Source of the DNA: Candidatus Omnitrophota bacterium
GTDB lineage: Bacteria > Omnitrophota > Gorgyraeia > B26-G9
Length of the DNA stretch: 64,000 nt
Direction: 5' to 3'
Assembly: GCA_043814605.1 (NCBI GenBank)
Contig: JBDRJV010000047.1
Coordinates: 5,077 to 69,076 of the forward strand
Shown: positions 10,353 to 48,208 of the stretch, piece after piece
How positions within the stretch are numbered: the first letter of the stretch is position 1
Layout: each line of letters begins with the position of its first letter
Notes under the pieces: generated by a model
The model's input: the letters and a program-made list of their open reading frames with translations, nothing else
Told to the model about the DNA's origin: nothing
The model's database searches: none
Translations under genes and position numbers: made by a program

Positions 10353-10420
10353 TCTCTCTACTAGTTGAAAACATTAATATATTTTCAGTGAAATCCCGCT
10401 AAGGCGGGGCTACTCGCTAC
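10353..10420 (+). repeat. REP-like dispersed palindromic element, copy 1
   Basis: ctctctact-agttgaaaacattaatatattttcag-tgaaatcccgctaaggcggggctactcgctac. Contains the CCCGC-TAAG-GCGGG hairpin. Confidence 0.8.
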
Positions 10421-13876: not shown

Positions 13877-13934
13877 TGTTGAGAACATTAATATATTTTT
13901 AGCGAAATCCCGCTAAGGCGGGGCTACTCGCTAC
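13877..13934 (+). repeat. REP-like element, copy 2 (preceded by the gcatcaagctccaggctgcaagc module from 13831)
   Basis: Near-identical to copy 1. Confidence 0.8.
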
Positions 13935-15647: not shown

Positions 15648-17110
15648 ATAATAAATATGATGACATAATAATCGGAGCTGGTATTGGGGGATTAGTTTGT
15701 GGATGTTACTTAGCGAAACAAGGAAGAAAAGTTTTGATTGTTGAACAACATTTCCAAGCAGGTGGGTATTGTAGTTCATTTAAAAGAAAAGGTTTTACTT
15801 TTGATACTTCAATTCATTCAATAGGAAGTTTAAGAGAAGGAGGTAAAGTAAGAAAAATATTTAATGAACTTGGACTAGAAGATGAAATAGAATTAACCAG
15901 GTCAGACCCTACCGATATTTTAATTTTTCCGGGTCATACGATTTTTATAAGAAACAAGTTAAATGATACTATAGCTAGTTTTCAGGAATCATTTCCACAT
16001 GAATTTGAAAAAATTAAAGACTTTTTTTATTTTATTTACAATTTTGATTTTATAAAAAACTATTCAAATTTAAAAACTAAAACATTCAAAGATGTTTTAA
16101 ATATTTATTTTCAAGATGAAAAATTGAAATCTATAATCAGTATTATATTAGGCAATATTGGATTGCCTGCGAGCAGAGTCGCTGCATTACCAGCCATTGT
16201 TCTTTATAAAGAATTTATTTTGGATGGGGGGTATTATCCTAAAGGAGGCATGCAATCATTTTCAAATGGTTTAGCAAGAAAATTTAAAAAATTAGGAGGA
16301 GAATTAAGATTAAAAAATAAAGTTGAAAAAATAATTATAAAAAAAAATAAAGCGGTAGGAATAATTATTGGTAAAGAAGAAAAAATATTTTCTGATAATG
16401 TTATTTCGAATTGTGATGCTACGCATACTTTTTTAGATCTTATAGGGAAAAAATTTTTGTCTGATAAGTTTGTTAAAAAAATTGATAATCTTGAAACTTC
16501 AGCATCTGCTTTTGTTGTATATTTAGGTTTAAATAAGAGTTATAATTCAATTTTAAAAAACAGATGTAGTTGGTGGTGTTATTTAAGTGATAAATATGAT
16601 GTGGAAAAGGTATTTTCAGATATTAAAAGAAAAAATAAACCATATTCTGATAATTTTGTGTTTTGTATATTTACATCCTCACATGATAGATCTCTCGCTC
16701 CTGAAAGAGGAGAGACAATCTCTTTAGTTAGTCTAGCGACAGTTAAGGATCTAGATTTTTGGAAAAAAAATAAGGAAAAATTTGCAGATGATTTAATTAA
16801 AAGAGCAGAAAAATTTATTCCAGAGCTATCAAAACATATTATTGTAAAAGAAATAGCAACTCCACATACTATGCAGCGATATACTCTTAATAAAGATGGG
16901 GCTGCTTATGGATGGGCTTCTACTGTAACTCAAATTGATAAAGAAATTATGCCTAGAGAAACAAACATAAAAAATTTATACTTAACTGGACATTGGACTA
17001 CTCAGGGAAGTGGCCAGGGAGGGGTTTCAACTGTAGCTTATTCTGGTAGAAGTATAGCTAAATTACTGATTAGAAGAAAAAATTTTTATGAGAAAAAAGG
17101 GATTAAATAA
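15644..17110 (+). CDS. FAD-dependent oxidoreductase, phytoene-desaturase/amine-oxidase (CrtI-like) family
   Basis: Dinucleotide-binding IIGAGIGGL...VEQHFQAGGYC near the N-terminus, about 488 aa. The stop overlaps the start of the downstream kinase (ATGA). Confidence 0.75.
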   Translation: MNNKYDDIIIGAGIGGLVCGCYLAKQGRKVLIVEQHFQAGGYCSSFKRKGFTFDTSIHSIGSLREGGKVRKIFNELGLEDEIELTRSDPTDILIFPGHTIFIRNKLNDTIASFQESFPHEFEKIKDFFYFIYNFDFIKNYSNLKTKTFKDVLNIYFQDEKLKSIISIILGNIGLPASRVAALPAIVLYKEFILDGGYYPKGGMQSFSNGLARKFKKLGGELRLKNKVEKIIIKKNKAVGIIIGKEEKIFSDNVISNCDATHTFLDLIGKKFLSDKFVKKIDNLETSASAFVVYLGLNKSYNSILKNRCSWWCYLSDKYDVEKVFSDIKRKNKPYSDNFVFCIFTSSHDRSLAPERGETISLVSLATVKDLDFWKKNKEKFADDLIKRAEKFIPELSKHIIVKEIATPHTMQRYTLNKDGAAYGWASTVTQIDKEIMPRETNIKNLYLTGHWTTQGSGQGGVSTVAYSGRSIAKLLIRRKNFYEKKGIK

Positions 17111-19329
17111 TGAATTTATTTTCTTTAACTAGTATAGTTGTAATTCTTTCTACTTTGGGGCTTGGATTTTTTATTTTTATAACAAATAAAAATAATAAAG
17201 TTGCTAGTTCTTATGGAGCGTTAGCTATTGCAGCAGGTATCTGGGGAATAGGAGCTTTTTTATTTTCGACTACTTCTAACAAAGAAACAGCGTTATTTGG
17301 GTGGAGAATAGCACATATAGGTATAATATTTACACCGCCACTTTTTTTCCATTTTGTTTGTAGATTAGCTAATTTAAACAAAAAAAGGTTGCTTTTTATT
17401 AGTTATTTGTCGGGCTTGTTATTTTTGTTACTTTGTTTTTTAGATACTAAATTATTTTTAGGGGATATAGATTTTGTTTTTAATAGTTTTTATTTTTTAG
17501 CTTGGTATAAACAGAAAAATATAGGTTACTTATTATATTATATTCTGTTTTATCATATTTTATTAGGATATGCATTTTTACTATTGTTGCAGTTTTATAC
17601 AAAAATAATAGGTATTATGCGTATTCGAGTCAAATATATAATTTTAGCTTCTGTAATTGGTTGGTTAGGTCCACATGGTATGTATGTATTAATTTTAGGA
17701 ATTAAAAAATTATATCCAATTTCAAATCTTTGTATAGGTATATATCCATTTATTATTGCATACGCAATTGCAAAACATAGACTTATGGATGTCAAGGTTG
17801 CAATTACACGTAGTGCAATTTTACTTATAGTGTATATTTGTATAGTTGGATTCCCTCTATTAGTAATAGGAGTAGGTAAAGAATACTTGCAGAATAGTTT
17901 TGGAAATAAATGGTTTTACCCTCCTTTAGCATTATATACATTATTAGCTTTGTTTGCTCCGTATATTTATTTAACTTTACAAACAAGAGCTGAGCAAAAA
18001 AGAATCAGACAGCAAATACATCTGCATCAATCTTTAAAAGCAGCTTCTAAAACAACAATTGAGGTGCAAAGTATTGATAAACTAGCTAAAATTATTCCCA
18101 GATATTTAATCCGGCTTTACAGCCGGTTAGATAATAAAATTAGCCATATTACTTTGTTTCTTAAGGATAAGAAAAAAGAAGAATATCATTTGCGTTCATC
18201 TGTAGGAAACCAAAAATTGCAATCAGATATCTTGATTAATTCCGACAGCTACCTTGCGAAATGGTTTACCAAGGTCAGAGAAGTTTTAGTGGAAAATGGA
18301 GCCGTAAAAGCCAAAGAAGTGGAAGTTTTAGTGTATGAGGATATTGATTTTTGGATGAATAAAGCCAGTATTTTGAGTGTGCCTTACAAAGGATTAAATA
18401 AAGTACTGAACAATTTAAAAAAAGAAATGAAAGAATTAAAAGCCAGTGTGATTTTGCCCTCTGTCTACCAAAAAGAATTGTTAGGATTTTTGATTTTAGG
18501 CGAGAAAACTCCGGATCCGTATTCATTAAATGATATTGATACTTTTTCTATTCTGGCTAATGACAGTGCTATGGCGTTTAAGGCTGCGCAATTATTTGAG
18601 GATTTAAAGATTGCGCAGGCACGCTTGATCCAATCAGAAAAACTAAACCTTCTGGGCCAGCTGGCCTCATCCATGGCGCATGAAATTAATAATCCTCTGG
18701 CAATTATTTCCGGCAATGTGCAGTTATTGCTTATGGATGAATCGGATGAGAGCAAGATGAAATTATTAACTAAAATCAATGACCAGACTGAACGCGGTTA
18801 TAAAATTATCCACCGCTTGCTAAATTTTTCCAAGCTTCCTAAAGAAGACATTAAAGAAATTGATATTAATCGTCTGGTAGATGAAACACTGGAATTGATC
18901 AATCATAAGATCGTGCACGGTAATATTGAACTGCAAAAGGATTTTAAAGCAACAGATATAATCCGCGGTAATCCCACGCAAATCCAGGAAGTTATCTTAA
19001 ACCTGTGTGTTAATGCTATCCAAGCTATGCCCCAGGGCGGGAAACTGATGATCAATACCAGCCGCGCGGGCGATATGGTGCAGATAGAAGTTAAGGATAC
19101 AGGAAAAGGCATCCCGCCGGAAGAAGTAAAGGATATATTTGATCCGTTCTTTACCAAGGGCAAGGAAAACGGTACAGGGTTGGGATTGTTTGTGGCCAGC
19201 CAGATCATGAGCCTGCATAACGGATTAATAAAAGTTAAAAGTAAGGTTGGCGAAGGCACTAGTTTTGTGTTAAAATTTGCTTTAGGCGATGAAGGGCCGA
19301 AAGGCACGGAAAGTGGGGTCAGGTCTTGA
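17110..19329 (+). CDS. sensor histidine kinase, multi-TM sensor + GAF-like middle + HisKA + HATPase_c
   Basis: Multi-TM N-terminus. HEINNPLAIISGN H-box. GTGLGLFVA G2 box. Long near-identical blocks shared with the 21453 kinase. Confidence 0.85.
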   Translation: MNLFSLTSIVVILSTLGLGFFIFITNKNNKVASSYGALAIAAGIWGIGAFLFSTTSNKETALFGWRIAHIGIIFTPPLFFHFVCRLANLNKKRLLFISYLSGLLFLLLCFLDTKLFLGDIDFVFNSFYFLAWYKQKNIGYLLYYILFYHILLGYAFLLLLQFYTKIIGIMRIRVKYIILASVIGWLGPHGMYVLILGIKKLYPISNLCIGIYPFIIAYAIAKHRLMDVKVAITRSAILLIVYICIVGFPLLVIGVGKEYLQNSFGNKWFYPPLALYTLLALFAPYIYLTLQTRAEQKRIRQQIHLHQSLKAASKTTIEVQSIDKLAKIIPRYLIRLYSRLDNKISHITLFLKDKKKEEYHLRSSVGNQKLQSDILINSDSYLAKWFTKVREVLVENGAVKAKEVEVLVYEDIDFWMNKASILSVPYKGLNKVLNNLKKEMKELKASVILPSVYQKELLGFLILGEKTPDPYSLNDIDTFSILANDSAMAFKAAQLFEDLKIAQARLIQSEKLNLLGQLASSMAHEINNPLAIISGNVQLLLMDESDESKMKLLTKINDQTERGYKIIHRLLNFSKLPKEDIKEIDINRLVDETLELINHKIVHGNIELQKDFKATDIIRGNPTQIQEVILNLCVNAIQAMPQGGKLMINTSRAGDMVQIEVKDTGKGIPPEEVKDIFDPFFTKGKENGTGLGLFVASQIMSLHNGLIKVKSKVGEGTSFVLKFALGDEGPKGTESGVRS

Positions 19330-19367: not shown

Positions 19368-20213
19368 ATGGCAAGACCATTAAGAATAGAATATGACGGA
19401 GCAGTATATCACGTAACATCGCGAGGTAATGCGAAAGAACCTATCTTTAAGAATGCTGAAGATAGGTTTAATTTTTTTGAAGTACTAGCAGAAGCAAAGA
19501 AAAAGCATAATATTATATGTCATGCGTATTGTTTAATGGATAATCATTATCATTTAGTTGTGGAAACTCCTGAGGGAAATTTGAGTAGGGCAATGAGGCA
19601 TATAAATGGAGTTTATACGCAAAGTTTTAACCGCAAGCATAAAAGAGTAGGTCATGTGTTTCAAGGTAGATATAAAGCGATGTTGGTAGATAGGGATGAA
19701 TATCTATTGGAAGTAATTAGATATGTGGTTTTAAATCCCGTACGAGCTGGATTAGTTAAAAGTGCGGAAAAATGGCAATGGAGTAGTTATTGTGGAACTG
19801 TGGGGATGAGCAAAAAAGAGAGATTTCTGGATACAGATTGGGTGTTGGAATATTTTGGAGGCACAAAAAATATTGCTCAAAAAAAATACCGAGAATATGT
19901 AGATGAGGGAATTGAAAAAGAAATAGTAAAGAAAAAGATTAGTCAGCAGAGTATTCTTGGCAGTGAAAGTTTTAAGCAAAAAATCTCTAAGTATGTGCAA
20001 GGGAAAAAAGAAATAAAAGAAATTTCAAGGTGCCAACGTTATGTGGGACGTCCTCAATTAGAAGATATTTTTAAGGGAGCGCAAAAAGTCAAAGCAGAAA
20101 GAAATGCTTTAATTAGAAAAGCAATAACAGATTACGGGTATCAGCAAAAAGAGATAGCGCAGTGGTTGGGGATGCATTATACCAGCGTAAGTAAAATACT
20201 AAGCAGGGAATAA
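19368..20213 (+). CDS. IS200-like Y1 (HUH) transposase, REP-associated (RAYT)-like, with C-terminal DnaA_C-like HTH
   Basis: HUH motif HYHLVVET. Catalytic-Tyr region GRYKAM. The C-terminal ~80 aa resemble the DnaA C-terminal DNA-binding domain. Paralog at 43640. Confidence 0.7.
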   Translation: MARPLRIEYDGAVYHVTSRGNAKEPIFKNAEDRFNFFEVLAEAKKKHNIICHAYCLMDNHYHLVVETPEGNLSRAMRHINGVYTQSFNRKHKRVGHVFQGRYKAMLVDRDEYLLEVIRYVVLNPVRAGLVKSAEKWQWSSYCGTVGMSKKERFLDTDWVLEYFGGTKNIAQKKYREYVDEGIEKEIVKKKISQQSILGSESFKQKISKYVQGKKEIKEISRCQRYVGRPQLEDIFKGAQKVKAERNALIRKAITDYGYQQKEIAQWLGMHYTSVSKILSRE

Positions 20214-21452: not shown

Positions 21453-23684
21453 ATGAACCTTTTTTCTTTTTCGTCATTAATAGTTTTTGTATCAAATTTG
21501 ATTTTGACTATTTTTTTATTGATTCAAGGAAGGAAGCAAAAAGTTAGTTATATTTTGAGTATTTTTAGCTTGCTTGCTACTGTTTGGGGATTAGGCGCGT
21601 ATAAATTTTCTTCTACCAACTTGATTGAAGAAGCTTTATTTTGGAGAAAGATAGCTAATGTGGCAGTTATTTTTAGCCCTGTTTGTTACTATTATTTTAT
21701 ATGTGAATATTTAGAGTTAAAGAACAAAAAGCATAAAATGCTTCTTTTTGTATCTTTTCTTTTTAGCATATTTTTTGTTTTTTCGAATTTCTTTTTACCG
21801 CCTAAGTTTTTTGTTGGTGGTTTAAGAATCGTTTTTAGCCAGTTCTACTATCCAGATTGGTTTCAATATAAGAGTTTTTTGTATTTATTTTTTTATGGAA
21901 CATTTTATTTGTTATTATTAGGATATGCTTTTCTTTTATTGCTGACGGCATATGTAAAAGCTACCCCTAAGCTAAGAAATACATTGAAGTATTTTATTTT
22001 GGGTTCAGTATTTGGATGGTTAGGCCCGACGTTTATGTGGCTGATAGAATTTAGAATAGACATATATCCTTATGCAAATTTCTTAATAGCAATATACCCA
22101 GCAATTTGGGCCTATGCTATTATAAAACATCGTTTAATGGATATTAAAGTTGCAATTACGCGCGGAGCAATTCTTTTAATAGTTTACGGATTTATCGTAG
22201 GATTGCCATTATTAACAATTTTAATAGCAAAAGATTATTTGCAAAATAATTTTGCAGATAAATGGTTTTATCCGCCATTGGCTTTGTATACTCTGTTAGC
22301 TTTATTTGCGCCGTATATTTATCTAACATTGCAAACAAAAGCTGAGCAAAAAAGAATACGTCAGCAAATCCATTTGCATCAATCTTTAAAAGCCGCGTCT
22401 AAAACTACCATTGAAGTGCAAAGCATTGATAAGCTGGCTAAAATCATTCCTAGGTACCTAATTAGGCTTTACAGCCGATTGGACAATAAGATCAGCCACA
22501 TTACATTATTCCTTAAAGATAAGAAAAAAGAAGAGTATAATTTGCGTTCATCTGTAGGAAACCAAAAATTGCAATCAGATATTTTGATTAATTCCGATAG
22601 CTACCTTGTGAAATGGTTTACCAAGGTCAGAGAAGTTTTAGTAGAAAACGGAGTATTAAGAGCCAAGGAAGTGGAAGTATTGGTTTATGAGGATATTGAT
22701 TTTTGGATGAATAAGGCTAGTATTTTAAGTGTGCCTTATAAAGGCTTGAATAAAGTATTATTAAATCTAAAAAAAGAAATGAGGGGATTAAAAGCCAGTG
22801 TGATTTTACCCTCTGTCTACCAAAAAGAATTGTTAGGGTTTTTGATTTTAGGCGAGAAAACTCCGGATCCGTATTCTTTAAATGATATTGATACTTTGTT
22901 AATCCTATCAAATGATATGACAATAGCTTTAAAATCACAGGAAATTATTGAAGATTTGACAAAAACACAAGCACATTTAGTGCAGTCAGAGAAACTAAAG
23001 GTTGTGGGAGAAATAGCTTCTTGTTTAGCTCATGAAGTAAAAAATCCGCTAACAACTCTAAAAACTTTCTCTGAATATTTACCACAAAAGATGCAAGAAA
23101 AAGATGAAGAATTTATTGAAAAGTATCGCAGATTGGTTCCTCCTGAGATTGAAAGGATAAATTCAATAGTTCAGAAATTATTAGATTTTTCTAAGCCAAA
23201 TCTTCCTAATTTTCAAAAAACAGATTTAAAAGCGTTGATAAAAGAGGTGGTAGAGTTTTTGAGTGAGAAGTTTTTAAAAAATAAAATAAAAGTAATAGAA
23301 AATTATTCGAAAGATTCCCTAATGCTAAAAATTGATCAGCACCAGATAAGACAAGTATTGTTGAACCTGATATTAAACGCGATAGATGCTATGCCCGAAG
23401 GAGGCAATATTAGTATAAGCTCAGAAATGTTAGATAACGCTATAAAAATAGAAATTAGTGATACAGGCAAAGGGATTCCTGAGGATGAGTTGAAAAATAT
23501 CTTTGATCCGTTCTTTACCAAGGGTAAGGAAAACGGTACAGGGCTAGGCTTGTTTGTGGCCAACCAGATCATGAGCCTGCATAATGGTTTAATAAAAGTT
23601 AAAAGTAAGTATGGCGAAGGCACCAGTTTTGTGCTAAAATTTGCTTTAGGCGATGAAGGGCCCAAGGGAACGGAGAAGAGTTAA
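21453..23684 (+). CDS. sensor histidine kinase, multi-TM sensor + GAF-like middle + HisKA + HATPase_c
   Basis: HEVKNPLTTLKTF H-box. The middle domain and the last ~90 aa are near-identical to the 17110 kinase. The DHp domain matches the 30290 kinase instead. Confidence 0.85.
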   Translation: MNLFSFSSLIVFVSNLILTIFLLIQGRKQKVSYILSIFSLLATVWGLGAYKFSSTNLIEEALFWRKIANVAVIFSPVCYYYFICEYLELKNKKHKMLLFVSFLFSIFFVFSNFFLPPKFFVGGLRIVFSQFYYPDWFQYKSFLYLFFYGTFYLLLLGYAFLLLLTAYVKATPKLRNTLKYFILGSVFGWLGPTFMWLIEFRIDIYPYANFLIAIYPAIWAYAIIKHRLMDIKVAITRGAILLIVYGFIVGLPLLTILIAKDYLQNNFADKWFYPPLALYTLLALFAPYIYLTLQTKAEQKRIRQQIHLHQSLKAASKTTIEVQSIDKLAKIIPRYLIRLYSRLDNKISHITLFLKDKKKEEYNLRSSVGNQKLQSDILINSDSYLVKWFTKVREVLVENGVLRAKEVEVLVYEDIDFWMNKASILSVPYKGLNKVLLNLKKEMRGLKASVILPSVYQKELLGFLILGEKTPDPYSLNDIDTLLILSNDMTIALKSQEIIEDLTKTQAHLVQSEKLKVVGEIASCLAHEVKNPLTTLKTFSEYLPQKMQEKDEEFIEKYRRLVPPEIERINSIVQKLLDFSKPNLPNFQKTDLKALIKEVVEFLSEKFLKNKIKVIENYSKDSLMLKIDQHQIRQVLLNLILNAIDAMPEGGNISISSEMLDNAIKIEISDTGKGIPEDELKNIFDPFFTKGKENGTGLGLFVANQIMSLHNGLIKVKSKYGEGTSFVLKFALGDEGPKGTEKS

Positions 23685-27515: not shown

Positions 27516-27587
27516 GCTACTTTCTACTCTTTGAGAACATTAATATATTTTCAGCGAAATCCCGCTAAGGCGGGGCTCCTCGCTACT
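27516..27587 (+). repeat. REP-like element, copy 3 (immediately upstream of mtnP)
   Basis: ctactctttgagaacattaatatattttcagcgaaatcccgctaaggcggggctcctcgctac. Confidence 0.8.
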
Positions 27588-30289: not shown

Positions 30290-31906
30290 TTATTTTTGCG
30301 GAATCTTTATCCTAAAGATGCTTCCTTTATCTACTTCACTTTCAACTTCAATCGTTCCATTATGATTTTGAATGATCTGCCTACATATGGATAGTCCTAA
30401 TCCTGAACCTGTGTGTTTAGTTGTAAAAAATGGATTAAAAATATTATCTAATGCTTTTTTGCTGATGCCGCAGCCAGTATCTTTGATTTCAATAGTTGAT
30501 GTATTTTTATCCGATGCAACAGATATAAAAATCTCACCGCCCTTAGGCATTGCTTCTATGGAATTTAAGATTAAGTTTAATAAAACCTGCTTAATTTGAT
30601 TGGAATCAATGTGAATCAATAATTCTGGATTTTCATATTCTTCATGAACTTTAATTTTATTTTTTAAGAATTCATTATTCAAGAATTCTAATATATCTTT
30701 AATCAGATTAGCAATATTTGTGGGTTTTAAATTGGGTTCTGCAGGTTTGGAAAAATCCAGTAATCTGTGAATAATATTATTTATCCGTTCAACTTCTGAA
30801 GGGATAAGCTTATTGAATTTATCAAAAAACTCATCATCTTTGTCTTTATATTTATCCTTAATGTATTCTGAAAATGTTTTAATCGTAGTCAAAGGATTTT
30901 TTACTTCATGTGCTAAGCCTAGAGCCATAGTTGTAGCAACCTTTAAACGTTGGGATTTTTCTAGTTCATGATGTAGGAGTTTGTTTTCTGTAGCAAATTC
31001 TTCAGTGGTTTTACCCAGAAATAAACGGTCGATAATTTTTTGGATTTTGTTACGGAGAGGATTAAACAATATAGCAATAATAAAAGTAGCGACTAAACTT
31101 ACAGGCAGAGATGTGTATCCAATGATATTTTTAAATAGCCACTCAATACCTACAATTAGTAATAGGTATATTCCAGTTAATATAGCTATAAGAATTGAAT
31201 AGATCAAACTTTTTTGTAAAGCTACTCTAATTCCCATAATTTGATGTTTAAATATTCCTATACACATGCATATTATCATAAGTGGAATACAAAAATATCC
31301 TAGTGGGTATATTTCTAACCCGTATTTACCTAAAAAATCAATTGGTCCAATAATAGTTCCTAAAACAAAAGGATACAGAGCAAAATAAAGTTGTTGTTTT
31401 TCTGAGGATGTAATATTAGGCTGATTAATTTTTTTGTAAATAATATAAATGACTAAAATTACTAAAACAGACCATATGAATTGAAACATGTAGTGGTAAT
31501 TACCAGCTTTAGGATAAAATCCCCAAAAGTGAGTATAGAAACCTGCGAGTATAGTATTAGTTTTAAATAAGAAGTAAACGAGAGTTAAATAACCTACTAG
31601 TAAACTTATTGTTACAATTTTTTTTAATTTTATTCCGGTTATTTTAGCAGTAAAATATAAACAAGAAAATGGTAATCCTCCAACTCCAAGGTAAACAGAT
31701 CTAGATAAAAAGTTAGCAAGAATTTTATTTGTGGTTGAGAAAAGAATAGCATCTGAGAATTGCCAAATAAATAAAGATAGACAGAATAAAAACCAACCAA
31801 AATTAATACCTGATTTAATATTTTTATTCCATACATATATTCCTAATAAAATAATTAATATGGCGCTGATAAATGGCGGGATGGAATATGCACTAAATAT
31901 AAGCAT
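30290..31906 (-). CDS. sensor histidine kinase, multi-TM sensor + HisKA + HATPase_c
   Basis: HEVKNPLTTIKTF H-box. GSGLGLSICRQII G2 box. About 8 TM helices. Confidence 0.85.
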   Translation of the reverse strand: MLIFSAYSIPPFISAILIILLGIYVWNKNIKSGINFGWFLFCLSLFIWQFSDAILFSTTNKILANFLSRSVYLGVGGLPFSCLYFTAKITGIKLKKIVTISLLVGYLTLVYFLFKTNTILAGFYTHFWGFYPKAGNYHYMFQFIWSVLVILVIYIIYKKINQPNITSSEKQQLYFALYPFVLGTIIGPIDFLGKYGLEIYPLGYFCIPLMIICMCIGIFKHQIMGIRVALQKSLIYSILIAILTGIYLLLIVGIEWLFKNIIGYTSLPVSLVATFIIAILFNPLRNKIQKIIDRLFLGKTTEEFATENKLLHHELEKSQRLKVATTMALGLAHEVKNPLTTIKTFSEYIKDKYKDKDDEFFDKFNKLIPSEVERINNIIHRLLDFSKPAEPNLKPTNIANLIKDILEFLNNEFLKNKIKVHEEYENPELLIHIDSNQIKQVLLNLILNSIEAMPKGGEIFISVASDKNTSTIEIKDTGCGISKKALDNIFNPFFTTKHTGSGLGLSICRQIIQNHNGTIEVESEVDKGSIFRIKIPQK

Positions 31907-31908
31907 TT

Positions 31909-32271
31909 TTAAATATTATTTTTAACTTTTTCTAAAATATCTTTAGAATCAAAAGGTTTGACAATATAGTCAATCGCGCCTTTTTCCGCAGCTTCCTGCG
32001 CGATTTCCGCGCTTTTATAACCAGTAACAATGATTACTTTTTTATCCGGGAATTTTTCTTTAATGCATTGAGTAACTTCTAACCCGTTCTGCACAGGCAT
32101 TTTGATGTCTAAAAGCACGAGGCTAATGGAAGATTTATTTTTTAAAGCAGACAGGCATTCATTGCCGTTTTTGGCAAAGACCAGGTCATAATCTTTTTCC
32201 AGGATCAGCTTTAATGATTCGCGTATTCCTTCTTCATCATCACAAATTAAAATTCTTTTTTTATCGCGCAT
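31909..32271 (-). CDS. response regulator, receiver domain only
   Basis: ICDDEEGIRE, LDIKMPVQNG, KPF. Only 2 nt separate it from the kinase. Confidence 0.85.
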   Translation of the reverse strand: MRDKKRILICDDEEGIRESLKLILEKDYDLVFAKNGNECLSALKNKSSISLVLLDIKMPVQNGLEVTQCIKEKFPDKKVIIVTGYKSAEIAQEAAEKGAIDYIVKPFDSKDILEKVKNNI

Positions 32272-32393: not shown

Positions 32394-32948
32394 CTACAAG
32401 GCTATTGGACTTACCACGACCAGTAATTTCGCTTCCTGCTCTCCGATGTTTTTAATCGCATGCGGCATGGACGCGTCAAAATATATGGTTGAATTTTTCT
32501 TTAAATCATAAATTTTATCAGAGATTGATAACTCTGCGTTTCCTTCTAAACAGTAAATAAACTTATCTGTGCCGGGCTTGTTTTCTTCCCGGGAAGTGCT
32601 TTTACCTGCGGCAATCGTTAAAAGCTGTGGCAGCATTTTTTTGTTTTTTATGGGCTTAGAAAGAATTACCGATGTAACGCTCTCATCAAAAGTAAATACT
32701 TCTTCTTCCATATTTACATTATCTAAAAAAGAAATTTTTTCATCTTTTTTATCCAGATCTTTATAGAATTCTCCAATGTTCAGGTTTAGGGCATGGCAGA
32801 TCCTTAAATGCGTGTTCAGATTGCCGGTAGTAATGCCGTTTTCAATGCGGCAGAGCGTGGCCTTGCCCACACCGGACATTTGCGATAAGGCGTCAAGCGT
32901 AAGATGCTTGCCTTTACGTAAAAGTTTTAGTTTTTTCCCCAGTTTCAT
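32394..32948 (-). CDS. XRE-family HTH + cupin-domain transcriptional regulator
   Basis: N-terminal HTH (LSQMSGVGKATLCRIENG). C-terminal cupin beta-barrel region. Confidence 0.7.
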   Translation of the reverse strand: MKLGKKLKLLRKGKHLTLDALSQMSGVGKATLCRIENGITTGNLNTHLRICHALNLNIGEFYKDLDKKDEKISFLDNVNMEEEVFTFDESVTSVILSKPIKNKKMLPQLLTIAAGKSTSREENKPGTDKFIYCLEGNAELSISDKIYDLKKNSTIYFDASMPHAIKNIGEQEAKLLVVVSPIAL

Positions 32949-33665: not shown

Positions 33666-33693
33666 TTGACAAAAATGAAAAATATGGTATTAT
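33666..33693 (+). promoter_or_regulatory. sigma70-like promoter TTGACA-N16-TATTAT upstream of the tail-fibre-like gene
   Basis: Consensus hexamers. About 260 nt of leader follow before the ATG at 33953. Confidence 0.5.
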
Positions 33694-33896
33694 CATAAGT
33701 GGAACAAAAGTTTGCTCATTAAGAAAAAAATTTAAAAATTTGAATTGACTCGCCAAAAAGCGTGGCGTATAGGTCGCAAATAAAGCAACTGTAGATTTAA
33801 TGAAGAGCTTAAGTATAAGCTCATTTTCCCCGATACTTAAACATTTGAAAATTTTGAAAAAATTTTCTGCATAAGTTTCGGGATAAATTCGCGCAG

Positions 33897-33946
33897 ACAG
33901 CTTATGTCGCTTGATAAGCTCCATAAGTTGTGCGCTCATTTAGGAG
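33897..33946 (+). promoter_or_regulatory. conserved 5'-leader hairpin motif (copy 1) immediately upstream of the RBS of the tail-fibre-like gene
   Basis: CAGCTTATG-N15-CATAAGTTG stem followed by GTGCGCTCATT and the RBS. The homologous motif sits upstream of the RHS gene. Confidence 0.55.
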
Positions 33947-33952
33947 GGGAAT

Positions 33953-34969
33953 ATGAAAAAGTTAGCAGTTGTAGTTTTGGTGATTGGATTAGGAATTATT
34001 GTTGATTGTGCAAATATATTTGCTGGAGATGGAGATTTGATTGTGGGGGGGAATCTTGGTATTGGCACAGCAACTCCATCTGAGAAATTAGAGTTGGGGG
34101 TTTTAGGTGTTCCTGCATTTATAAAAATCTCCGGAGGACATCCCGGAGGTTCAGAAGCAGTTGGTTTAAAATTAAAAAGTTATTACCGTAATTGGAAAAT
34201 GGTTGTCAATGATAATCCAGTAACCAGTACTACAGGGCTACAACTTTGGGATGGAACTAATGTTAGATTACAGTTTACAGATAACGGATATGTTGGTATT
34301 GGCACAGTAACTCCATCTGAGAAATTAAAAATTAGTATCCCGGGAGTTTCGACATTTATGAAAATCACGGGTGGCAATCCTGGCGGAGGATCAGAAGCAG
34401 TGGGTGTGAAATTAAGCAGTCCTTATCGAAATTGGAGAATAGCTGTAAACGATGATTCGGTGCGTAGTACTGCAGGATTACAAATATTTGATGGGGCAAA
34501 TATCCGTTTGCAAATTGCAGATAACGGATATTTAGGAGTTGGGACAATAGCTCCGAGCCGCAAATTATTTGTAAACGGTGATGCGGGTGGATTAACACCT
34601 TGGTATAGTGCATCAGATGAGCGTTTAAAGAAAAACATTAGTACAATTGATAGCGCTCTAGATAAAGTTATGCAATTGCGGGGTGTGAATTTTGAATGGG
34701 ATGAGGCAGTTATCGAAGAAAAATACAAATGTAAGAAAGAAGCAAAAGATAAGCAAAATAAAACAAAATATTTTACAGAAGGAGTGCAAATGGGGCTTAT
34801 TGCCCAAGAAGTTGCCGAAGTAATTCCGGAAGTTGTTTCCACCGACGGAGAGCATTATTCGATTTGTTATGCGAGCATGGTCGGAATTCTCGTGGAAGCA
34901 GTCAAAGAACAGCAGGCGCAAATTCAGGATTTACAGCAAAGAGTAAATTATTTAGAGGGGAAAGAATAA
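33953..34969 (+). CDS. secreted tail-fibre-like repeat protein with C-terminal intramolecular-chaperone (peptidase S74) autoproteolytic domain
   Basis: Signal peptide. Three ~55-aa internal repeats (GIGTxTPSEKL...GG.PGG.SEAVG.KL). C-terminal SDERLKKNI...GVNFEW...MGLIAQEV motif of endosialidase/tail-spike chaperone domains. Confidence 0.7.
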   Translation: MKKLAVVVLVIGLGIIVDCANIFAGDGDLIVGGNLGIGTATPSEKLELGVLGVPAFIKISGGHPGGSEAVGLKLKSYYRNWKMVVNDNPVTSTTGLQLWDGTNVRLQFTDNGYVGIGTVTPSEKLKISIPGVSTFMKITGGNPGGGSEAVGVKLSSPYRNWRIAVNDDSVRSTAGLQIFDGANIRLQIADNGYLGVGTIAPSRKLFVNGDAGGLTPWYSASDERLKKNISTIDSALDKVMQLRGVNFEWDEAVIEEKYKCKKEAKDKQNKTKYFTEGVQMGLIAQEVAEVIPEVVSTDGEHYSICYASMVGILVEAVKEQQAQIQDLQQRVNYLEGKE

Positions 34970-35035
34970 GAAAACCAGAAAAACGAAAAAATATTTTAAT
35001 GAACAGGCAACCTCTTAACCAAAGGGGAAAAAAAA

Positions 35036-36417
35036 TGAAATTCTATAAATCTTTAATATTACTTTTTCTCTTACTTGTAATTTTTTCTCAGGGTTTGCCA
35101 GTATTGGCGCAGACGCTTTTTCCTATTAGAATTTTAGAAAATCCATCATTAACTTTTTCTACTTTGCAATCTGCCTATAACCAGGCGCAATCTGGCCAGA
35201 CAATTCAATGCCGCGCTGTAACTTTAAATGAATCAGTTACTCTTAACCGTGATATTGCGGTTACGATTTGCGGCGGCTATAACAGTGATTTTTCGCAAAA
35301 AACAGATGCAGTAACAGTTTTAATCGGCGGAGTTGCTTTAAACAGCGGTACAGCAATTTTGGATAATTTATCAGTTTCTTTTACGGACACGCAAACTGTT
35401 CCGGATACGCCGACTTTAGTGGAAGTCAGATATTTGGACACAAAAGTTTACTTAAATTGGAGCAGTGTGAATAATGCGGATGGATATATTGTCAAATACA
35501 GTACAACCAGCGGAACTTATACTTATACTGAATACATTGAAGCTGGTACAAGCCATGTGGTCACAAATTTAACGAATAATACGCAATATTATTTTGTGGT
35601 GAGCGCGTATAATGCGAGCGGCGTAAGTGATAATTCTAATGAATTAAGTGCGATGCCCCAGCCGCGGGAAGCAATTGCCGGCTATGAAACAGTATTTAGT
35701 AATGTTTCAACAAATGGGCTTTTTGCCGCCATGCCGATTATTATGAGTGAAGATGGGACGATTACCAGTATTAGTATGTTCCATAAAGCTGGCACAGGCT
35801 CTATGGTGTTAGGAATTTATAGCGGAGCAAATTCTCCCCAAACTTTACTAGCTACAACTCAAACCACAGCGATTGAAAATACAACAGGCTGGCAAACCAT
35901 AACGTTACTTAATCCTGTGCATGCGGAAAATGCAGAAACAATTTGGATAGCTTGGCTTTATTCGGTTAATCCCGGGATTCGCTATACAACAGGCGAACCG
36001 TCAGCTTATGCTTGCGGTGATAATTGGGATTCTTTAGGTGGTACAATGCCGGCTAATTTTCCCGCAAGTGGTGATTCCACTGTAATCGCTTCCTTATATA
36101 TAAATTATGTGCAAAACCAGCCGCCGCATATTACTGAACTTATTCCGGCAAATACAGCAACTCAAGAAGAAACAGATACCTTGACTTTTGAAGTTACTGC
36201 CAGTGATTATCATTTTGATCCGATTGAATATCAATTTGTAATTGATGATAATATTGTGCAATCCTGGACAAGTACAAATACTTATAATTGGGATACGCAG
36301 GAGAGTGATTTTGGCAAGCATTCTTTTAAAGTGCAAACTCGGGATGATATCGGCGCGCAGGAAGAGTCTGCTGTGCGCGAATTATTTATTTATCACAAAC
36401 CAATTTCAATAGAGTAG
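35036..36417 (+). CDS. secreted protein with fibronectin type III domain
   Basis: Signal peptide MKFYKSLILLFLLLVIFSQGLPVLAQ. FN3-like block (YLNWSSV..DGYIVKYS...YYFVVSAYN). Confidence 0.6.
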
Positions 36418-36484
36418 CAAGTAGCCCCGCCTTAGCGGGATTTCGCTTAAAATATATTACTGTTCTCAACAAGTAGAGAGTATT
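36413..36484 (-). repeat. REP-like element, copy 5
   Basis: Reverse complement: atactctctacttgttgagaacagtaatatattttaagcgaaatcccgctaaggcggggctacttgcta. Confidence 0.8.
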
Positions 36485-36558
36485 CCCGAGAAATTCAGGG
36501 GAATCTCCGGGACTAAATCCTGGAAATGCTTGGCATTTCACAGGGCAATTCGCATAGA

Positions 36559-36604
36559 TCACTTATGTCGTTAGTGCTCCATAAGTGATGTGCTCATTGA
36601 GGAG
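36559..36604 (+). promoter_or_regulatory. conserved 5'-leader hairpin motif (copy 2) immediately upstream of the RHS toxin gene
   Basis: ATCACTTATG-N12-CATAAGTGAT stem followed by GTGCTCATT and the RBS. The stem differs from copy 1 by compensatory changes. Confidence 0.55.
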
Positions 36605-36610
36605 ATGATT

Positions 36611-39600
36611 ATGAAAAAAATATTATTTAAATCCATGTCTGCGGTTCTGGCTGTAACCTGTTTTTTAAGTTTTACATTTAATGGATTAACCATTGCTAAG
36701 GCTGGCGAAAGCTCAGCTAGTATTGCCGCGAGTGGTGCGATTACACCGGGCGGAGCAACCAGTATAAACTTTTCCATGAATTCATTTCAAACCGATCTTT
36801 TCCGCGGTAATGCCTCTTATTCTGTGCCTATTGCAGTGCCTGGTGGCCGCAAAGGAATATCTCCTCAACTAGGTTTAAGTTATTCCAGTCAGCCGGCAAA
36901 TTCCTGGTGCGGTGTAGGCTGGAGTTTGGAGCTGGGTGCAATCACCCGCAGTATGAAAAATGGGTATCCCAAATATGACAGTACAGATATTTTTTCCTAT
37001 AACGGCGCAGAATTAGTAAATACAACTGGTAATGAATATCGTTTAAAAACAGATAATGCGTTTATGCGGTTTTTTAATAACGGTTCAACTTGGGAAGTAC
37101 TGGATACTAAGGGAACAAAATATAATTTTACAAGTACAATTACAACGCCATTGGGAATTTATCAATGGTCTTTAACCCGGGTGACTGATCTAAGTGGGAA
37201 TTATATGAGTGTGACTTATATTACGGATCAAAATCAGGTTTATCCGCAGCAAATTCAATATACAGGCAATGATAATACCAGTGCTGTGCCTTATTATACA
37301 GTTGATTTTGTTTTAGAAAATAGAACTGATACAATCACGCAGAATTTAATCATGCCCATTGCCAATACATCCGGCCCGGCAACTATTTTTAAAACTGTTA
37401 CTGCTAAAAGACTAAAAACTATTGAAGTTAAATACAGCGGGTCATTGATCAGAAAGTACATATTAAATTATCATGATAGTGCTGTTACTAAGCGATCAAT
37501 GCTTGAGAGTATTACATTATATGGCGAGGATGGGATAACTGCTTTAAATCCCATAACTTTTACTTATGATGAAACTGTTCCCTCGATTAATGCTTCAACC
37601 GGAGTTAATTTAAATACAGTACAAGGTAGCCCATTAATGGGTGATTTTAACGGTGATGGAATTAATGATATTTGTGTTGCTTTATATGAAGATTTCGGAG
37701 TTTATTTAGGTAATGCTGATGGAACTTTTCAATCTAGATCTATTTGGGGACATTATCCAGGATCAGATGCAGGAGCTTCTTTTTTTTCAACAGGAGATTT
37801 TAACGGTGATGGTTATACAGATATTTTTAATTTATTAGCATGGGGAAATGGTTGGGAAAACTATGGATTAATTGTGTACTTATCTGATAATGGAACAGGA
37901 TTTAAAAATGAAGCTTATTGGTATAGAGACACAAGGTCATTTTCTACACAAAGGCAACCGCTTGTTTTTTCTACTGATGTAAACAAAGACGGTAAAACCG
38001 ATATACTAGTTTTAGATAAGTATAGTGGAATATATAATCCGCCTCAAAGTAATGTGCCGGATATAAAAGGAAAATTCTATGTTGCTAATGACAATGCAAA
38101 TGGCTTTAATATCAGTGATCTGGAAAGTAATCTTTTTGTGGGAGAATATGGTAATTTTATGACCACTATAGGAGATGTAAACGGAGATGGAGAGTTAGAT
38201 ATGGTGTTTGGTTGTCATGGAGCAAATCTTGTAAAAGTTGCTTTGTATCCAGATTATATTTCAGGAAATATTATATCTCCTTATGTTTGGTTGTCCGGAC
38301 ATTTAATTGATAGCAATATAATAACCACAGATGTAAACTATGATGGTAAAAGTGATTTTTTAAGATTTTACTCACCTCAAGGGAATTGGGATTGTTTTCT
38401 TTCTAATGGAGCTAATTTTGAATCAAATTATCAAACCTGGTGCTCTTCATTTGGTGGGACAAGATGTCCAATTGCAGGTAATTTTGGTACTTCTAGCGTA
38501 ACAGTTCCCGGGACTTTTTATAATAATACTCATAATGGCACAGCAGAATGGCAGATTGCTCAAGCAACTTCAGCTAATGCACGTGCAGATTATTTATTAA
38601 GCGTGGATAATGGTGTTAGCGGAAGCTTAGACATAAATTATACACAATATCAAGAAGATACATTGCCGTTTATTCATTATGTGGTCGAATCCATTACTCA
38701 AAATGACGGCAGGGGAAATAGTTATACATCCAGGTATGAATACAGCGGCGCGCAATATGACCGCCAGGACCGGGAATTCCGCGGGTTTAATTGCGTGAAA
38801 GTTCTGGATGCGGATGGAAATTATTCTTTGAATTATTTTCATCAGGACGATATCTTAAAAGGTAAAACTTATTTATCAGAAACTCGTGATGCTGCGGGTA
38901 ACCTTTACGCAAAATCAGAAAATATTTGGGCAAGCACACAGCCATTTACCGGGGTTTATAATATTTTTGTCACCCAGCAAAATAATTATTCCTATGAAAC
39001 TCAAGCCACTCCCAAGCACACCCGGATGAATTATGATTATGATAGCTATGGCAATTGTACTTATGTGGGTTGTGAGGGATATTTAGATATTAGCGGTGAT
39101 GAAAAAACAGTACATACACAATATTATGCTCCGGCTGCGAATATTACATGTTTGCCTAGCCATACCTGGACACAAAATAGCAGCGGTTACAAAACTTCTG
39201 AGCAGTGGTTTGAATATGACGGAGGGACAAGTCTTTCTCACGGATTGCTGACAAAGCAGACTTCCTGGTTAGAGGGAGGGACTAATCCTGATGTTGAATA
39301 CACCTATGATGATTACGGCCAGGTGATTGAAGTAAAAGATGCCCTGTCTCGGACAACGACAACAGAATATGATAGCGCACAGCATTTATTCCCTATAAAA
39401 ATTACCAATGCTAAGGCACAGGAAATAACTTCTACTTATAATCCTAAAACCCAGCAGGTATTAACAATAACTGATGCTAATAATCAAACTACAACTAATC
39501 AGTATGATGTGTTCGGCCGCTTAATAAAAGTTATTGGGCCCAATGACACTGCAGCTTATCCCAGTGCCAGTTACAGTTATGATTTGAATGCAAATCCCAT

Positions 39601-43580: not shown

Positions 43581-44651
43581 GGGACGTAGTTAGATAATTA
43601 GATATTGACAGGAATAAAAAGTAATGATAGAATGAGTATATGCCAAGGCAAGGAAGAATACATATAGAAGGCGGTATATACCACGTTATTCAGCGGGGGA
43701 TAGAGCGGCGAGAGATATTTAAAGATGATGAAGACCGGGAGGAATTTTTAAAGCGGCTTGAAGAAGGATTAAGATATACAAGAGATAAATGTTATGGTTG
43801 GGTGTTGATGCCCAACCATTTTCATTTAGTGATCAGAACAAGTTTGATGCCATTGAGTGATTTGATGAGAAGATTACTTACCGGATATGCGCTATATTTC
43901 AATAAAAGGCATAAGCGAAGCGGATATTTGTATCAGGGAAGGTATAAATCGATCTTATGTCAAGAAGACGCATATTTGTTGGAGTTAATAAGATATGTGC
44001 ATTTAAATCCGCTGCGAGCAGGGATGGTAAAAGAAGTAAGTGGGTTAAGGGGATATAAATGGAGCGGGCATGTAGAATTGGTAGGATCAAATAAATGGGA
44101 GTGGCAATCTACAGAAGATATCTGGGGTTTATTTGGAAAAAGAAAAAATAAAGCAATAAAGAGCTATGAGGAATTTATTATAGAAGGGGTAGGAAACGTA
44201 AGAAAGGGAGAATTTTCCGGAGGGGGTTTAATCCGGAGTATTGGAGGCTGGAAAGAGGCAGAAAAATTCCGAAGGGAAAAATGGCTGCAGGAAGCAGATG
44301 AGCGGATATTAGGAGATGGAGATTTTGTTAGCCAAACATTGCAAGAAGCCGAAGAAAAAATGGAACGCCGGGAAAAACTTAAACAAGATGGTTGGGATAT
44401 TGAAAGGGTAATTCAAAAGGTATGCAAATTGATGGATGTTTCTTCAGGGGAAATAAAACGTGAGAGCCGCAGGAGCAGGGTGGCGCAGGCAAAGAGTGTG
44501 GCCGTATATTTAGCAAATAAGGAATTGGGGATAAGAGGATCTGAGCTTGCTGAGTATTTTGAAATAACGCGAGCTTCGATAAGCGCCTCGATACAAAGGG
44601 GGAAAAAGATTGTCGAAGATAATGAATATCTAATTATCTAACTACGTCCCT
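43581..44651 (+). mobile_element. 1.07-kb element bounded by perfect 24-bp terminal inverted repeats (GGGACGTAGTTAGATAATTAGATA) carrying the Y1 transposase gene
   Basis: Left IR at 43581-43604, right IR at 44628-44651 (reverse complement identical). The right IR overlaps the stop of the transposase ORF. Confidence 0.6.
43640..44641 (+). CDS. IS200-like Y1 (HUH) transposase, RAYT-like, with C-terminal DnaA_C-like HTH
   Basis: HFHLVIRT HUH motif. GRYKSIL Tyr region. C-terminal VAQAKSVAVYLANKELGIRGSELAEYF resembles the DnaA C-terminal domain. Confidence 0.7.
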   Translation: MPRQGRIHIEGGIYHVIQRGIERREIFKDDEDREEFLKRLEEGLRYTRDKCYGWVLMPNHFHLVIRTSLMPLSDLMRRLLTGYALYFNKRHKRSGYLYQGRYKSILCQEDAYLLELIRYVHLNPLRAGMVKEVSGLRGYKWSGHVELVGSNKWEWQSTEDIWGLFGKRKNKAIKSYEEFIIEGVGNVRKGEFSGGGLIRSIGGWKEAEKFRREKWLQEADERILGDGDFVSQTLQEAEEKMERREKLKQDGWDIERVIQKVCKLMDVSSGEIKRESRRSRVAQAKSVAVYLANKELGIRGSELAEYFEITRASISASIQRGKKIVEDNEYLII

Positions 44652-48114: not shown

Positions 48115-48176
48115 AACTTGTGACTTGTTGAGAACATTAATTTAATTTTTAGCGAAATCCCGCTGAGACGGGGAAA
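48115..48176 (+). repeat. REP-like element, copy 6, variant hairpin CCCGCTGAGACGGGG
   Basis: cttgtgacttgttgagaacattaatttaatttttagcgaaatcccgctgagacgggg. Same variant as copy 4. Confidence 0.75.
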
Positions 48177-48208
48177 CTTGGGGCTTGCAGCTATTCAAAA
48201 ATAAATAT

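Follow-up and report, generated by a model that had tools for sequence, protein, structure and literature searches.

An intergenic hairpin repeat of Omnitrophota resembling the REP/BIME elements of Escherichia coli, and its two probable members in a 64-kb stretch

Repetitive extragenic palindromic (REP) sequences and bacterial interspersed mosaic elements (BIME) are found in enterobacteria and pseudomonads, among them REP doublets (REPIN) that RAYT transposases mobilise. They protect mRNA 3' ends, terminate transcription weakly and bind gyrase, IHF and Pol I, and the REPs of Escherichia coli are known to act on the DNA as well as on the RNA level. The Correia element of Neisseria (Correia repeat enclosed element, CREE) is a co-transcribed intergenic inverted repeat with promoter and terminator activity, and its processing by RNase III alters mRNA stability. 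In phage T7, the RNase III sites are hairpins of ~ 20-28 bp with a conserved internal loop, located between the early cistrons, and their cleavage yields a 3' hairpin and a short leader. For the Omnitrophota, which are uncultured, mostly ultra-small and host-dependent bacteria, we know of essentially nothing on the control of gene expression. Here we describe a hairpin element, referred to as the arm, which is found twice in a 64-kb stretch of a Candidatus Omnitrophota contig (JBDRJV010000047.1, positions 5,077 to 69,076; hereafter the window). The two copies are very probably members of a widespread Omnitrophota intergenic repeat family. We propose, at somewhat less than even odds (roughly 0.45), that the arms form a mosaic palindromic element, not described before, which is similar to E. 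coli REP/BIME and has hairpins that mark transcript ends; transcription through the arms, their effect on RNA ends, a factor binding them and the way in which copies spread are what we infer from comparing sequences.

The initial annotation of the window had pointed to two look-alike motifs directly 5' of two ribosome binding sites, and both are present where described. Arm copy 1 (33879..33943, + strand), delimited by a covariance model (CM), folding and alignment with 64 homologues, ends at the Shine-Dalgarno sequence (SD) of a Peptidase_S74 protein gene, and arm copy 2 (36540..36601, +), delimited by CM and folding, ends at the SD of a SpvB/TcdB/RHS gene. The stem folds as had been proposed for a hairpin of ~ 45 nt, and the element proves to be longer, each arm being a hairpin of ~ 65 nt with the SD 2-4 nt past its end. 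Beyond the part reported before lies an outer stem, GCGC/GCGC in copy 1 and GCAT/GTGC in copy 2, and, past a TC/TC internal loop, an A/T stem, TAAAT/ATTTA in copy 1 and CAAT/ATTG in copy 2. The layout of copy 1 is thus CGGGA / TAAAT [TC] GCGC (AG) ACAG-CTTATG [TC] GCTT-GAT-AAGC [TC] CATAAG-TTGT GCGC [TC] ATTTA / G, and that of copy 2 GCAAT [TC] GCAT (AG) ATCA-CTTATG [TC] G..C [TC] CATAAG-TGAT GTGC [TC] ATTG. Folding gave -14.9 kcal/mol for copy 1 (z -3.2) and -12.8 kcal/mol for copy 2 (z -3.9), with z values from -2.5 to -3.9 overall. The G-U pair and the compensatory variation noted earlier for copy 1 are seen in these folds: at three stem pairs both partners have changed from one copy to the other in a compensatory manner, and the case for compensation now rests on 65-196 copies.

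The 3' half of the motif, GCTCCATAAGTNNTGYGCTCATT, has exactly two matches in the 64 kb, at 33918 and 36576, both on the + strand (0.01 in shuffles), and CTTATG-N6..20-CATAAG is found at the same two sites only (0.07 in shuffles). On alignment, the likeness of the two upstream regions is confined to the segment from AATTCGC through ATGAAAAA; neither the DNA upstream of the motif nor the coding regions downstream can be aligned between the two loci. The dissimilarity of the coding regions had been stated before, and Pfam indeed assigns unrelated domains to the two proteins, a Peptidase_S74 chaperone domain and SpvB/TcdB/FG-GAP/RHS domains respectively. A CM built from 65 homologues scores copy 1 at 79.7 bits (E 8e-23) and copy 2 at 58.4 bits (E 6e-16). 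With this CM, a full scan without filters detected no third arm in the window, and a custom scan of the window for hairpins with TC/TC or GA/GA 2x2 loops returned copy 1 and chance matches only. Both window arms lie in the same orientation, the TC sense, relative to the downstream gene. The SD of copy 1 is unpaired in the predicted folds and that of copy 2 is involved only in a weak, non-conserved alternative fold, so that neither copy displays SD sequestration or a terminator/antiterminator pair of alternatives.

The core pattern, CTTATGTCG-N3..12-GCTCCATAAG, was scanned against one genome per prokaryotic species and is present in at least 120 loci of ~ 89 species-level assemblies, two of which are single-cell genomes. 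Hence the motif is not a pair created by local duplication, the circumstance which had been named as fatal to a functional hairpin. The search for further copies that had been suggested is successful in this respect, and the copies it recovers are not specific to secreted-protein genes. By label, 92 of these loci belong to Omnitrophota/Omnitrophica, 25 to "uncultured Planctomycetes" (third-party metagenome-assembled genomes, MAGs), 2 to Nitrospirota-type bacteria and 1 to a "bacterium". In all, 196 arms were gathered, of which 194 come from 847 kb of fetched loci, i.e. 8-kb neighbourhoods of pattern-selected sites, and 2 from the window; genes were called by simple open reading frame (ORF) heuristics. 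A MAG holds up to 7 pattern-matched loci. One Omnitrophota MAG locus (L030) is syntenic with the window, at 49% identity for PriA, 41% for Fmt and 65% for a third gene. Four pattern matches on viral contigs lack the outer structure and the CM recovers only one 23-bit fragment from them; a viral origin was therefore rejected. At gathering thresholds Rfam 15 has no match in the window, and with relaxed E-values, applied to the surroundings of copy 1 and of a canonical pair, it gave only sub-threshold matches to generic long hairpins (miRNA precursors). Furthermore, no description of the arm was found in the searchable literature on repeats, palindromes or structured RNAs of Omnitrophota/Omnitrophica.

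The 65 simple copies give a near-gapless alignment with the consensus cGGG(a/t) TAAAT [TC] GgcC (ca) ATAA-CTTATG [TC] GC-tip-GC [TC] CATAAG-TTAT GgcC [TC] ATTTA a. From base to tip, the arm consists of the A/T stem (TAAAT/ATTTA), a 2x2 TC/TC internal loop, a covarying G/C stem, a bulge of 2-3 nt, a 10-bp stem with CTTATG/CATAAG, a second TC/TC loop and a short variable tip. It measures 55-65 nt, and more in a subfamily in which a third covarying hairpin is inserted at the bulge and forms a three-way junction. On the opposite strand the TC/TC loops read GA/GA. Watson-Crick or wobble pairs occupy 93.8% of the stem cells in the 65 copies, a figure that drops to 29-43% on sliding the partners by 1-3 columns, and two-sided changes occur in 15 of 24 pairs (196 cells), values reached by none of 500 column shuffles; related sequences are included in these figures, and the six core pairs of this alignment are fixed by the search pattern. 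In 75 copies found by the CM only, the core stem covaries too (CTTACG/CGTAAG, TTTATG/CATAAA, GTTATG/CATAAC, CTTAAC/GTTAAG). The outer 2x2 loop, which lies outside the search pattern, is TC in 65/65 copies on one side and 62/65 on the other. The same module, T-TC-G/C-TC-A, is found again at the inner loop, and numerous neighbouring hairpins have it as well, as do "minimal" arms made of the base only. In a few arms (L007 965-1025, L091 3586-3650, L088 185-249) the inner module is flipped, GGAGC...GCGAC standing within a TC-type outer stem, an arrangement that resembles an inversion of the palindrome tip, for instance by template switching.

Other identities of the motif were considered and rejected. 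In a K-turn the bulge would not be separated by 4 bp from the tandem GA as it is here. A small ORF in the hairpin does not hold, the ATG...TAA frame being lost through variation in tip length, nor does a sigma-54 or sigma-70 promoter within the motif, given that the CTTATG-CATAAG spacing varies (12 or 15 nt in the window, with tips of 3-12 nt elsewhere) and that the stems covary.

The arms are extragenic and sit at gene boundaries. Only 9/196 lie inside stop-to-stop ORFs of at least 150 aa, compared to 150 +/- 5 at random placement. The two ends of the arm behave differently, and it is the CTCATTxAA end which faces outward, against the gene boundary. An SD and start codon follow the arm end within 3-19 nt in 62/196 arms. 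For ten of these SD-adjacent genes Pfam identified GAPDH, ribosomal protein S16, chorismate synthase (AroC), type II dehydroquinase (AroQ), an FGGY kinase (GlpK), MutM/Fpg, PPDK, YmdB, starch synthase and a Nuo/Mrp antiporter subunit, while several other proteins encoded downstream of SD-adjacent arms begin with hydrophobic leaders. In the opposite orientation, the stop codon of a convergent ORF of at least 120 aa falls within the basal stem of 35 arms, as TAA at offset -4 in 17 of them and as TGA at offset -8, made of the last stem T and the GA loop, in 12. At least 7 arms lie downstream of tRNAs in sense orientation, starting 0-2 nt past the 3' ends of tRNA-Pro, Thr, Tyr, Gly and Met. In one locus (L046, 5292-5766) only 1 nt separates a TC-sense arm from the mature 5' end of the tmRNA that follows, and the arm would thus belong to the pre-tmRNA leader. 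In six species an arm overlaps the rpmG stop codon at the same position with differing stem sequences, in the order rpmG - arm - hairpin - tRNA-Trp - secE - nusG. Relative to local gene direction the two orientations are similarly frequent, 73 arms being forward and 46 reverse. GC skew tracks gene direction and the arms stand 76:51 relative to skew; a replication-strand bias was rejected, since the orientation bias of the arms with respect to GC skew does not exceed that of the genes. In a separate observation, tRNA-Thr, tRNA-Tyr and tRNA-Gly of one cluster (L035, 5879-6611) are each directly trailed by an arm and a central hairpin (see below) containing a promoter-like pair, TTGAGT...TATTAG.

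At its GGG end the arm is joined, in most homologous loci, to a variable "central" hairpin closed by CCC/GGG, of which the recurring types include TGACA...TGTCA, CACACCAATTG...CAATTGGTGTG and CCCGAC-TC-AT...AT-TC-GTCGGG. Beyond this central hairpin there is often a second, inverted arm: 36/49 neighbouring arm pairs are head-to-head, with palindromic spacers of 5-128 nt belonging to few recurring types, and the sequences of the two partners differ. The outer flanks of the pairs are a stop and a start codon in 5 cases, a start and another flank in 10, and a stop and another flank in 6; two starts or two stops were found in none. Orientation alternates in tandem arrays (L070, L111), one of which has six arms of alternating orientation within 700 nt (L070, 4056-4738). 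In 9/154 arms a perfect TTGACA precedes the basal-stem hexamer (TAAATT, TTAATT or TCAATT) by 16-17 nt, with a chance expectation of ~ 0.04 per spacing, and with such arms palindromes of the kind CCCTTGACA-N7-TGTCAAGGG are formed between the two members of a pair. Where the hexamer is the variant TAAGTT, 0/44 are SD-adjacent.

The arms are gained and lost between genomes. In the L030 locus an arm lies directly past the PriA stop codon, and the syntenic site of the window carries none. In an orthologous tRNA-Thr/Tyr/Gly cluster, a full arm follows tRNA-Tyr in L035, and in L114 a textbook terminator hairpin, AAAAATCCC-GACAA-GGGATTTTT, takes its place; after tRNA-Thr, L114 has a minimal arm only. 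One MAG (JAPLLS01) has 7 pattern-matched loci, and six of these, together with three loci of two other MAGs, share a near-identical unit of ~ 135 nt in unrelated flanks, indicating recent spread. In this unit the arm is accompanied by a small additional hairpin that has the same TTCG...CTCA base. No direct repeat marking a target-site duplication was seen by eye at the borders of the nine near-identical copies. Within most genomes, those of the window, JBDRHJ and JAHJAO among them, it is compensated changes that set the copies apart.

Taken as a REP/BIME-like element, the arms would be co-transcribed with their neighbours and their hairpins would serve as structured transcript ends. In the GA sense, directly past a stop codon or tRNA 3' end, an arm may provide 3'-end protection, termination or processing. 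In the TC sense, that of both window copies, it would be the last element of the 5' untranslated region (UTR), 2-4 nt before an exposed SD, where it could lend the leader stability or insulation or else serve as a hairpin for processing. A conserved host factor is the most likely reader of the invariant loops. Several observations weigh against this reading. The tail of the arm, (TC or GA)ATTTA, makes a poor U-tract and a terminator scan does not call the arms. Only 2 of the ~ 20 intergenic regions of the window carry one, hence the arm is not this genome's general terminator or leader. No protein partner of the arms was identified, and no RAYT (REP-associated tyrosine transposase) homologue was detected by tblastn with the RAYT-like protein of the window in 124 fetched loci (~ 190 arms). 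Wobble pairs, moreover, do not favour the presumed sense RNA: SD-adjacent arms have 26 G.T and 40 A.C, stop-adjacent arms 21 and 18, and the whole set 87 and 113; transversion mismatches number only 32. Complementarity is thus maintained to the benefit of both strands; such symmetry, unusual for selection on sense RNA only, fits a DNA-level palindrome constraint or a family transcribed in either sense. The reverse strand folds better in 178/195 arms, with a mean RNA energy of -25.6 against -21.6 kcal/mol; on that strand tandem G.A takes the place of the TC/TC loops, and most tips are GAA, GCA, GTA, GATA or GTAA loops.

The explanations set against the REP/BIME-like one are partly compatible with it and not all mutually exclusive. 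According to the initial annotation, the hairpin (or dyad operator) would be a dedicated element for the joint control of surface or toxin proteins, be it a thermometer, the target of an sRNA or a site of antitermination. The signal-peptide-like starts of both proteins encoded behind the window arms, the hydrophobic leaders found elsewhere and the conserved, compensated hairpin speak in its favour. However, arms precede cytoplasmic housekeeping genes such as GAPDH, S16, AroC, AroQ, GlpK, MutM and PPDK, as well as YmdB, and follow tRNAs and stop codons in the opposite orientation, which makes them a general intergenic repeat and not a switch for secreted proteins; 73 forward and 46 reverse arms, next to unrelated housekeeping and envelope genes, are not the picture of a sense-oriented leader with a coherent gene set. 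The unpaired SD and the lack of a G.U preference on the sense strand of SD-adjacent arms argue against a thermometer, sRNA target or antitermination site, and an operator would not allow the stem sequences to vary freely. The distribution of the arms has already largely refuted this explanation, which we hold to be extremely unlikely, and the position of both window copies before secreted-protein genes is happenstance of a general-purpose intergenic repeat. That the arms are purely selfish DNA, similar to REPIN (REP doublets forming hairpins) or miniature inverted-repeat transposable elements (MITE), is unlikely too, and deserves more weight. The hairpin would then be the single-stranded DNA substrate of a transposase or recombinase, e.g. 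of HUH/RAYT type, without gain for the host; compensatory changes would reflect staying mobilisable, and siting at gene ends an insertion preference together with purging of harmful insertions. The near-identical unit in nine loci of three MAGs, the difference in arm presence between L030 and the window, the head-to-head pairs and alternating arrays, the absence of strand bias in wobble pairs with both strands folding, and two RAYT-like proteins encoded in the window genome are all as expected of such DNA. On the other hand, copies in most genomes have diverged while each is still self-complementary, the two unlike arms of a pair are no simple terminal inverted repeats, and arms are kept at the same site past rpmG and tRNAs in several species. 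No target-site duplication was seen by eye at the nine near-identical copies, no transposase gene was found associated with the arms in the fetched loci or in the flanks of the window's RAYT-like genes, and the spacing between arm and SD is too constant for random insertion.

Alternatively, the arm could be a DNA-level site, a cruciform or duplex bound by a nucleoid, gyrase, replication or recombination protein much as BIMEs are by gyrase and IHF, and transcription would be incidental to it. Symmetric G.T and A.C counts agree with this, and so do the invariant asymmetric TC/GA loops, suggestive of structure-specific recognition, and the tandem G.A and GNA/GNRA-type loops of the reverse strand, which are stable in DNA too. 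Yet the outward end is set to the nucleotide with respect to the SD, the stop codon and tRNA/tmRNA ends, a terminator hairpin stands in the arm's place at an orthologous site, and no orientation bias with GC skew exceeds that of the genes, leaving a pure DNA site rather improbable. We consider it quite improbable that arms and central hairpin form a self-contained cassette in which the central hairpin holds the promoter, GA arms stop incoming transcription and TC arms are leaders. The TTGACA box 16-17 nt upstream of the hexamer, the palindromes it forms, the absence of TAAGTT next to an SD and the pairs located between a stop and a start codon would all follow from such a cassette. Against it, the -35 box is present in only ~ 6% of arms and in no other type of central hairpin, neither window central hairpin has a convincing promoter (the best one lies 190 nt further upstream), the basal stem covaries as a -10 box would not, and no pair separates two divergent starts. 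A bolder version of the favoured reading, speculative and doubtful, is that of a lineage-specific punctuation code, in which a protein or RNase conserved among Omnitrophota would recognise the T-TC-G/C-TC-A module, or the tandem GA of the complementary strand, so that a palindrome acts directionally. The GA sense would define or terminate RNA 3' ends directly past stop codons and tRNAs, the TC sense would make a protected leader 2-4 nt ahead of the SD or, 1 nt ahead of tmRNA, a maturation site, and arms with promoter-bearing central hairpins would be portable terminator-promoter-leader cassettes shuffled between genes.

If the REP/BIME-like reading is true, a boundary element present in at least 89 species would be a first handle on where Omnitrophota transcripts start, end or are processed. 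It would also be an analogue of REP/BIME of far greater phylogenetic depth than the classical ones, and would bear on the question of selfish versus domesticated repeats. The arm CM is a ready marker of Omnitrophota DNA in metagenomes and the invariant loop module may be used as bait for the protein that reads the arms. For annotation, conserved "leader hairpins" in these genomes call for caution, being repeats and not gene-specific riboregulators.

In the window, copy 1 is the last of three consecutive hairpins, a stretch of 149 nt which folds at -48.3 kcal/mol (z -4.8). Directly 5' of it lies a central hairpin, CCCGA.ACTTA ... TAAGT.TCGGG (33829..33882, +; -17.4 kcal/mol, z -4.6), of which the 3' strand provides the conserved GGG box. 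Before this, a short terminator-like hairpin, GAGCTTA-AGTA-TAAGCTC followed by ATTTT (33805..33827, +; -8.4 kcal/mol, z -3.8), occupies the place where many loci have the second, inverted arm. Among sigma-70-like promoters 5' of copy 1, the best, TTGACA-16-TATTAT with TG (33666..33693, +), matches the consensus at 11/12 positions in a promoter scan; this candidate, a consensus match only, would give a 5' UTR of ~ 250 nt ending in the three hairpins. Just 3' of it, a half-arm-like sequence, CATAAGT-N12-TGCTCATTAAG (33697-33725), may be the remnant of another arm. Past the arm, the SD AGGAGG (33942-33947) and the ATG (33953-33955; together 33942..33955, +) open the S74-domain gene (33953-34969; Pfam PF13884). 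This gene has an internal 240-nt tandem duplication, 34144-34314 and 34384-34554 at 73% identity, corresponding to two copies of a ~ 80-aa module. Divergent from it are an HTH-cupin regulator gene (32394-32948, -) and a receiver-domain gene (31909-32271, -). The window further encodes four paralogous HisKA_7TM histidine kinases (4104-6233, 17110-19329 and 21453-23684, +; 30290-31906, -), two of which lie within a duplicated block, 4.35 kb apart.

At the second locus, the stop codon of an fn3/DUF4082 gene is followed, 5' to 3', by a REP-like hairpin (36421-36446), a further hairpin TCCCG...CGGGA of doubtful standing (36484..36512, +; -11.8 kcal/mol, z only -0.8), a central hairpin CCTG.AAATGC-TTG-GCATTT..CAGG (36519..36544, +; -14.0 kcal/mol, z -4.7) and arm copy 2. 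The SD GAGGAG (36599-36604) and the ATG (36611-36613; together 36599..36613, +) then open the SpvB/TcdB/FG-GAP/RHS gene, which extends to 43021 (Pfam PF05593, PF03534, PF12256). A terminator scan of the window calls neither arm; it calls the REP-like hairpin (36426-36439) and an intragenic site (34129-34148, -).

The REP-like hairpin belongs to a second repeat family of the window, of ~ 80 nt, whose core GTAG-CCCCGCCTTAGCGGG-ATTTCGC on one strand has the classical REP signature of GTAG and hairpin. Copies at 10388-10413, 13902-13927, 27554-27579 and, in diverged form, 48145-48178 (all +) are each just upstream of genes, and the copy at 36421-36446 (-), called terminator-like, is directly past the fn3/DUF4082 stop codon, 95 nt 5' of arm copy 2. 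Two RAYT-like genes are present as well, both coding for homologues of Y1 (IS200-like) transposases. The product of the first (19368-20213, +) matches the NCBIfam model "REP-associated tyrosine transposase" at 96 bits, against a cutoff of 80, and that of the second (43640-44641, +), in which a DnaA C-terminal HTH domain is joined to the transposase part, matches the same model at 69 bits, below this cutoff. Neither arms nor the GTAG repeat were found in the flanks of these genes. Together, the GTAG-hairpin repeat and the two RAYT-like genes fit an orthodox REP-RAYT system better than the arms do.

Compared to known systems, two candidates can be set aside. MITEs do not match, as each arm is self-complementary and unlike its partner and no direct repeats were seen by eye at nine borders; integron attC sites do not match either, given a basal stem TAAAT/ATTTA with TC/TC loops and contexts such as the rpmG-tRNA-Trp-secE-nusG operon and tRNA clusters (intI was not searched for). 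Bidirectional intrinsic terminators resemble the arms in having an A-tract/T-tract palindrome (TAAAT...ATTTA), in lying directly past stop codons and tRNAs and in being interchangeable with them at one orthologous site. However, instead of a G+C hairpin followed by a U run, the arm has only three U, set off from the G/C stem by a TC or GA loop (tail TC-ATTTA or GA-ATTTA), and its sequence is conserved too. The siting is that of a terminator for the 35 stop-adjacent and at least 7 tRNA-adjacent arms and not for the 62 SD-adjacent ones, both window copies included; a third of all arms directly precede an SD, a position in which efficient termination would shut off the gene. The T7 RNase III sites and the spacer stems of rRNA and tRNA share with the arms a hairpin exactly between cistrons, and by analogy a similar use might explain the boundary placement; unlike the T7 sites, the arms are a chromosomal repeat family in both orientations. 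The Correia element is likewise a small inverted-repeat element adjoining genes; it is bounded by terminal inverted repeats of 26 bp, duplicates its TA target and has an IHF site, whereas each arm is a hairpin of its own, the members of a pair differ and no target duplication was seen.

The closest likeness is to REP/BIME, with differences on several counts. Arms are about twice as long (55-65 nt, against a REP hairpin of 20-40 nt) and have two invariant 2x2 TC/TC loops and a bulge able to hold a third hairpin. Their sequence is conserved across at least 89 species, unlike that of the species-specific REPs, and they are placed to the nucleotide with respect to the SD and the tRNA/tmRNA ends. 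The consensus 5' flank is CGGG(A/T) and not the 5' GTAG (GTRG) of REPs, and no RAYT gene flanked by arms was found in the 124 loci and the window. Hence, the arms are of the repetitive-extragenic-palindrome kind and not REP sensu stricto. What they have in common with REP/BIME is considerable: both are imperfect extragenic palindromes in spacers near gene ends, which for the arms too are presumably transcribed, with many diverged copies per genome (for the arms, 9/196 in ORFs, up to 7 pattern-matched loci per MAG and 2 in the 64-kb window), both form inverted pairs of two repeat types with few linker motifs (36/49 arm pairs being head-to-head) and alternating tandem arrays, and in both conserved mismatches give the hairpin a polarity.

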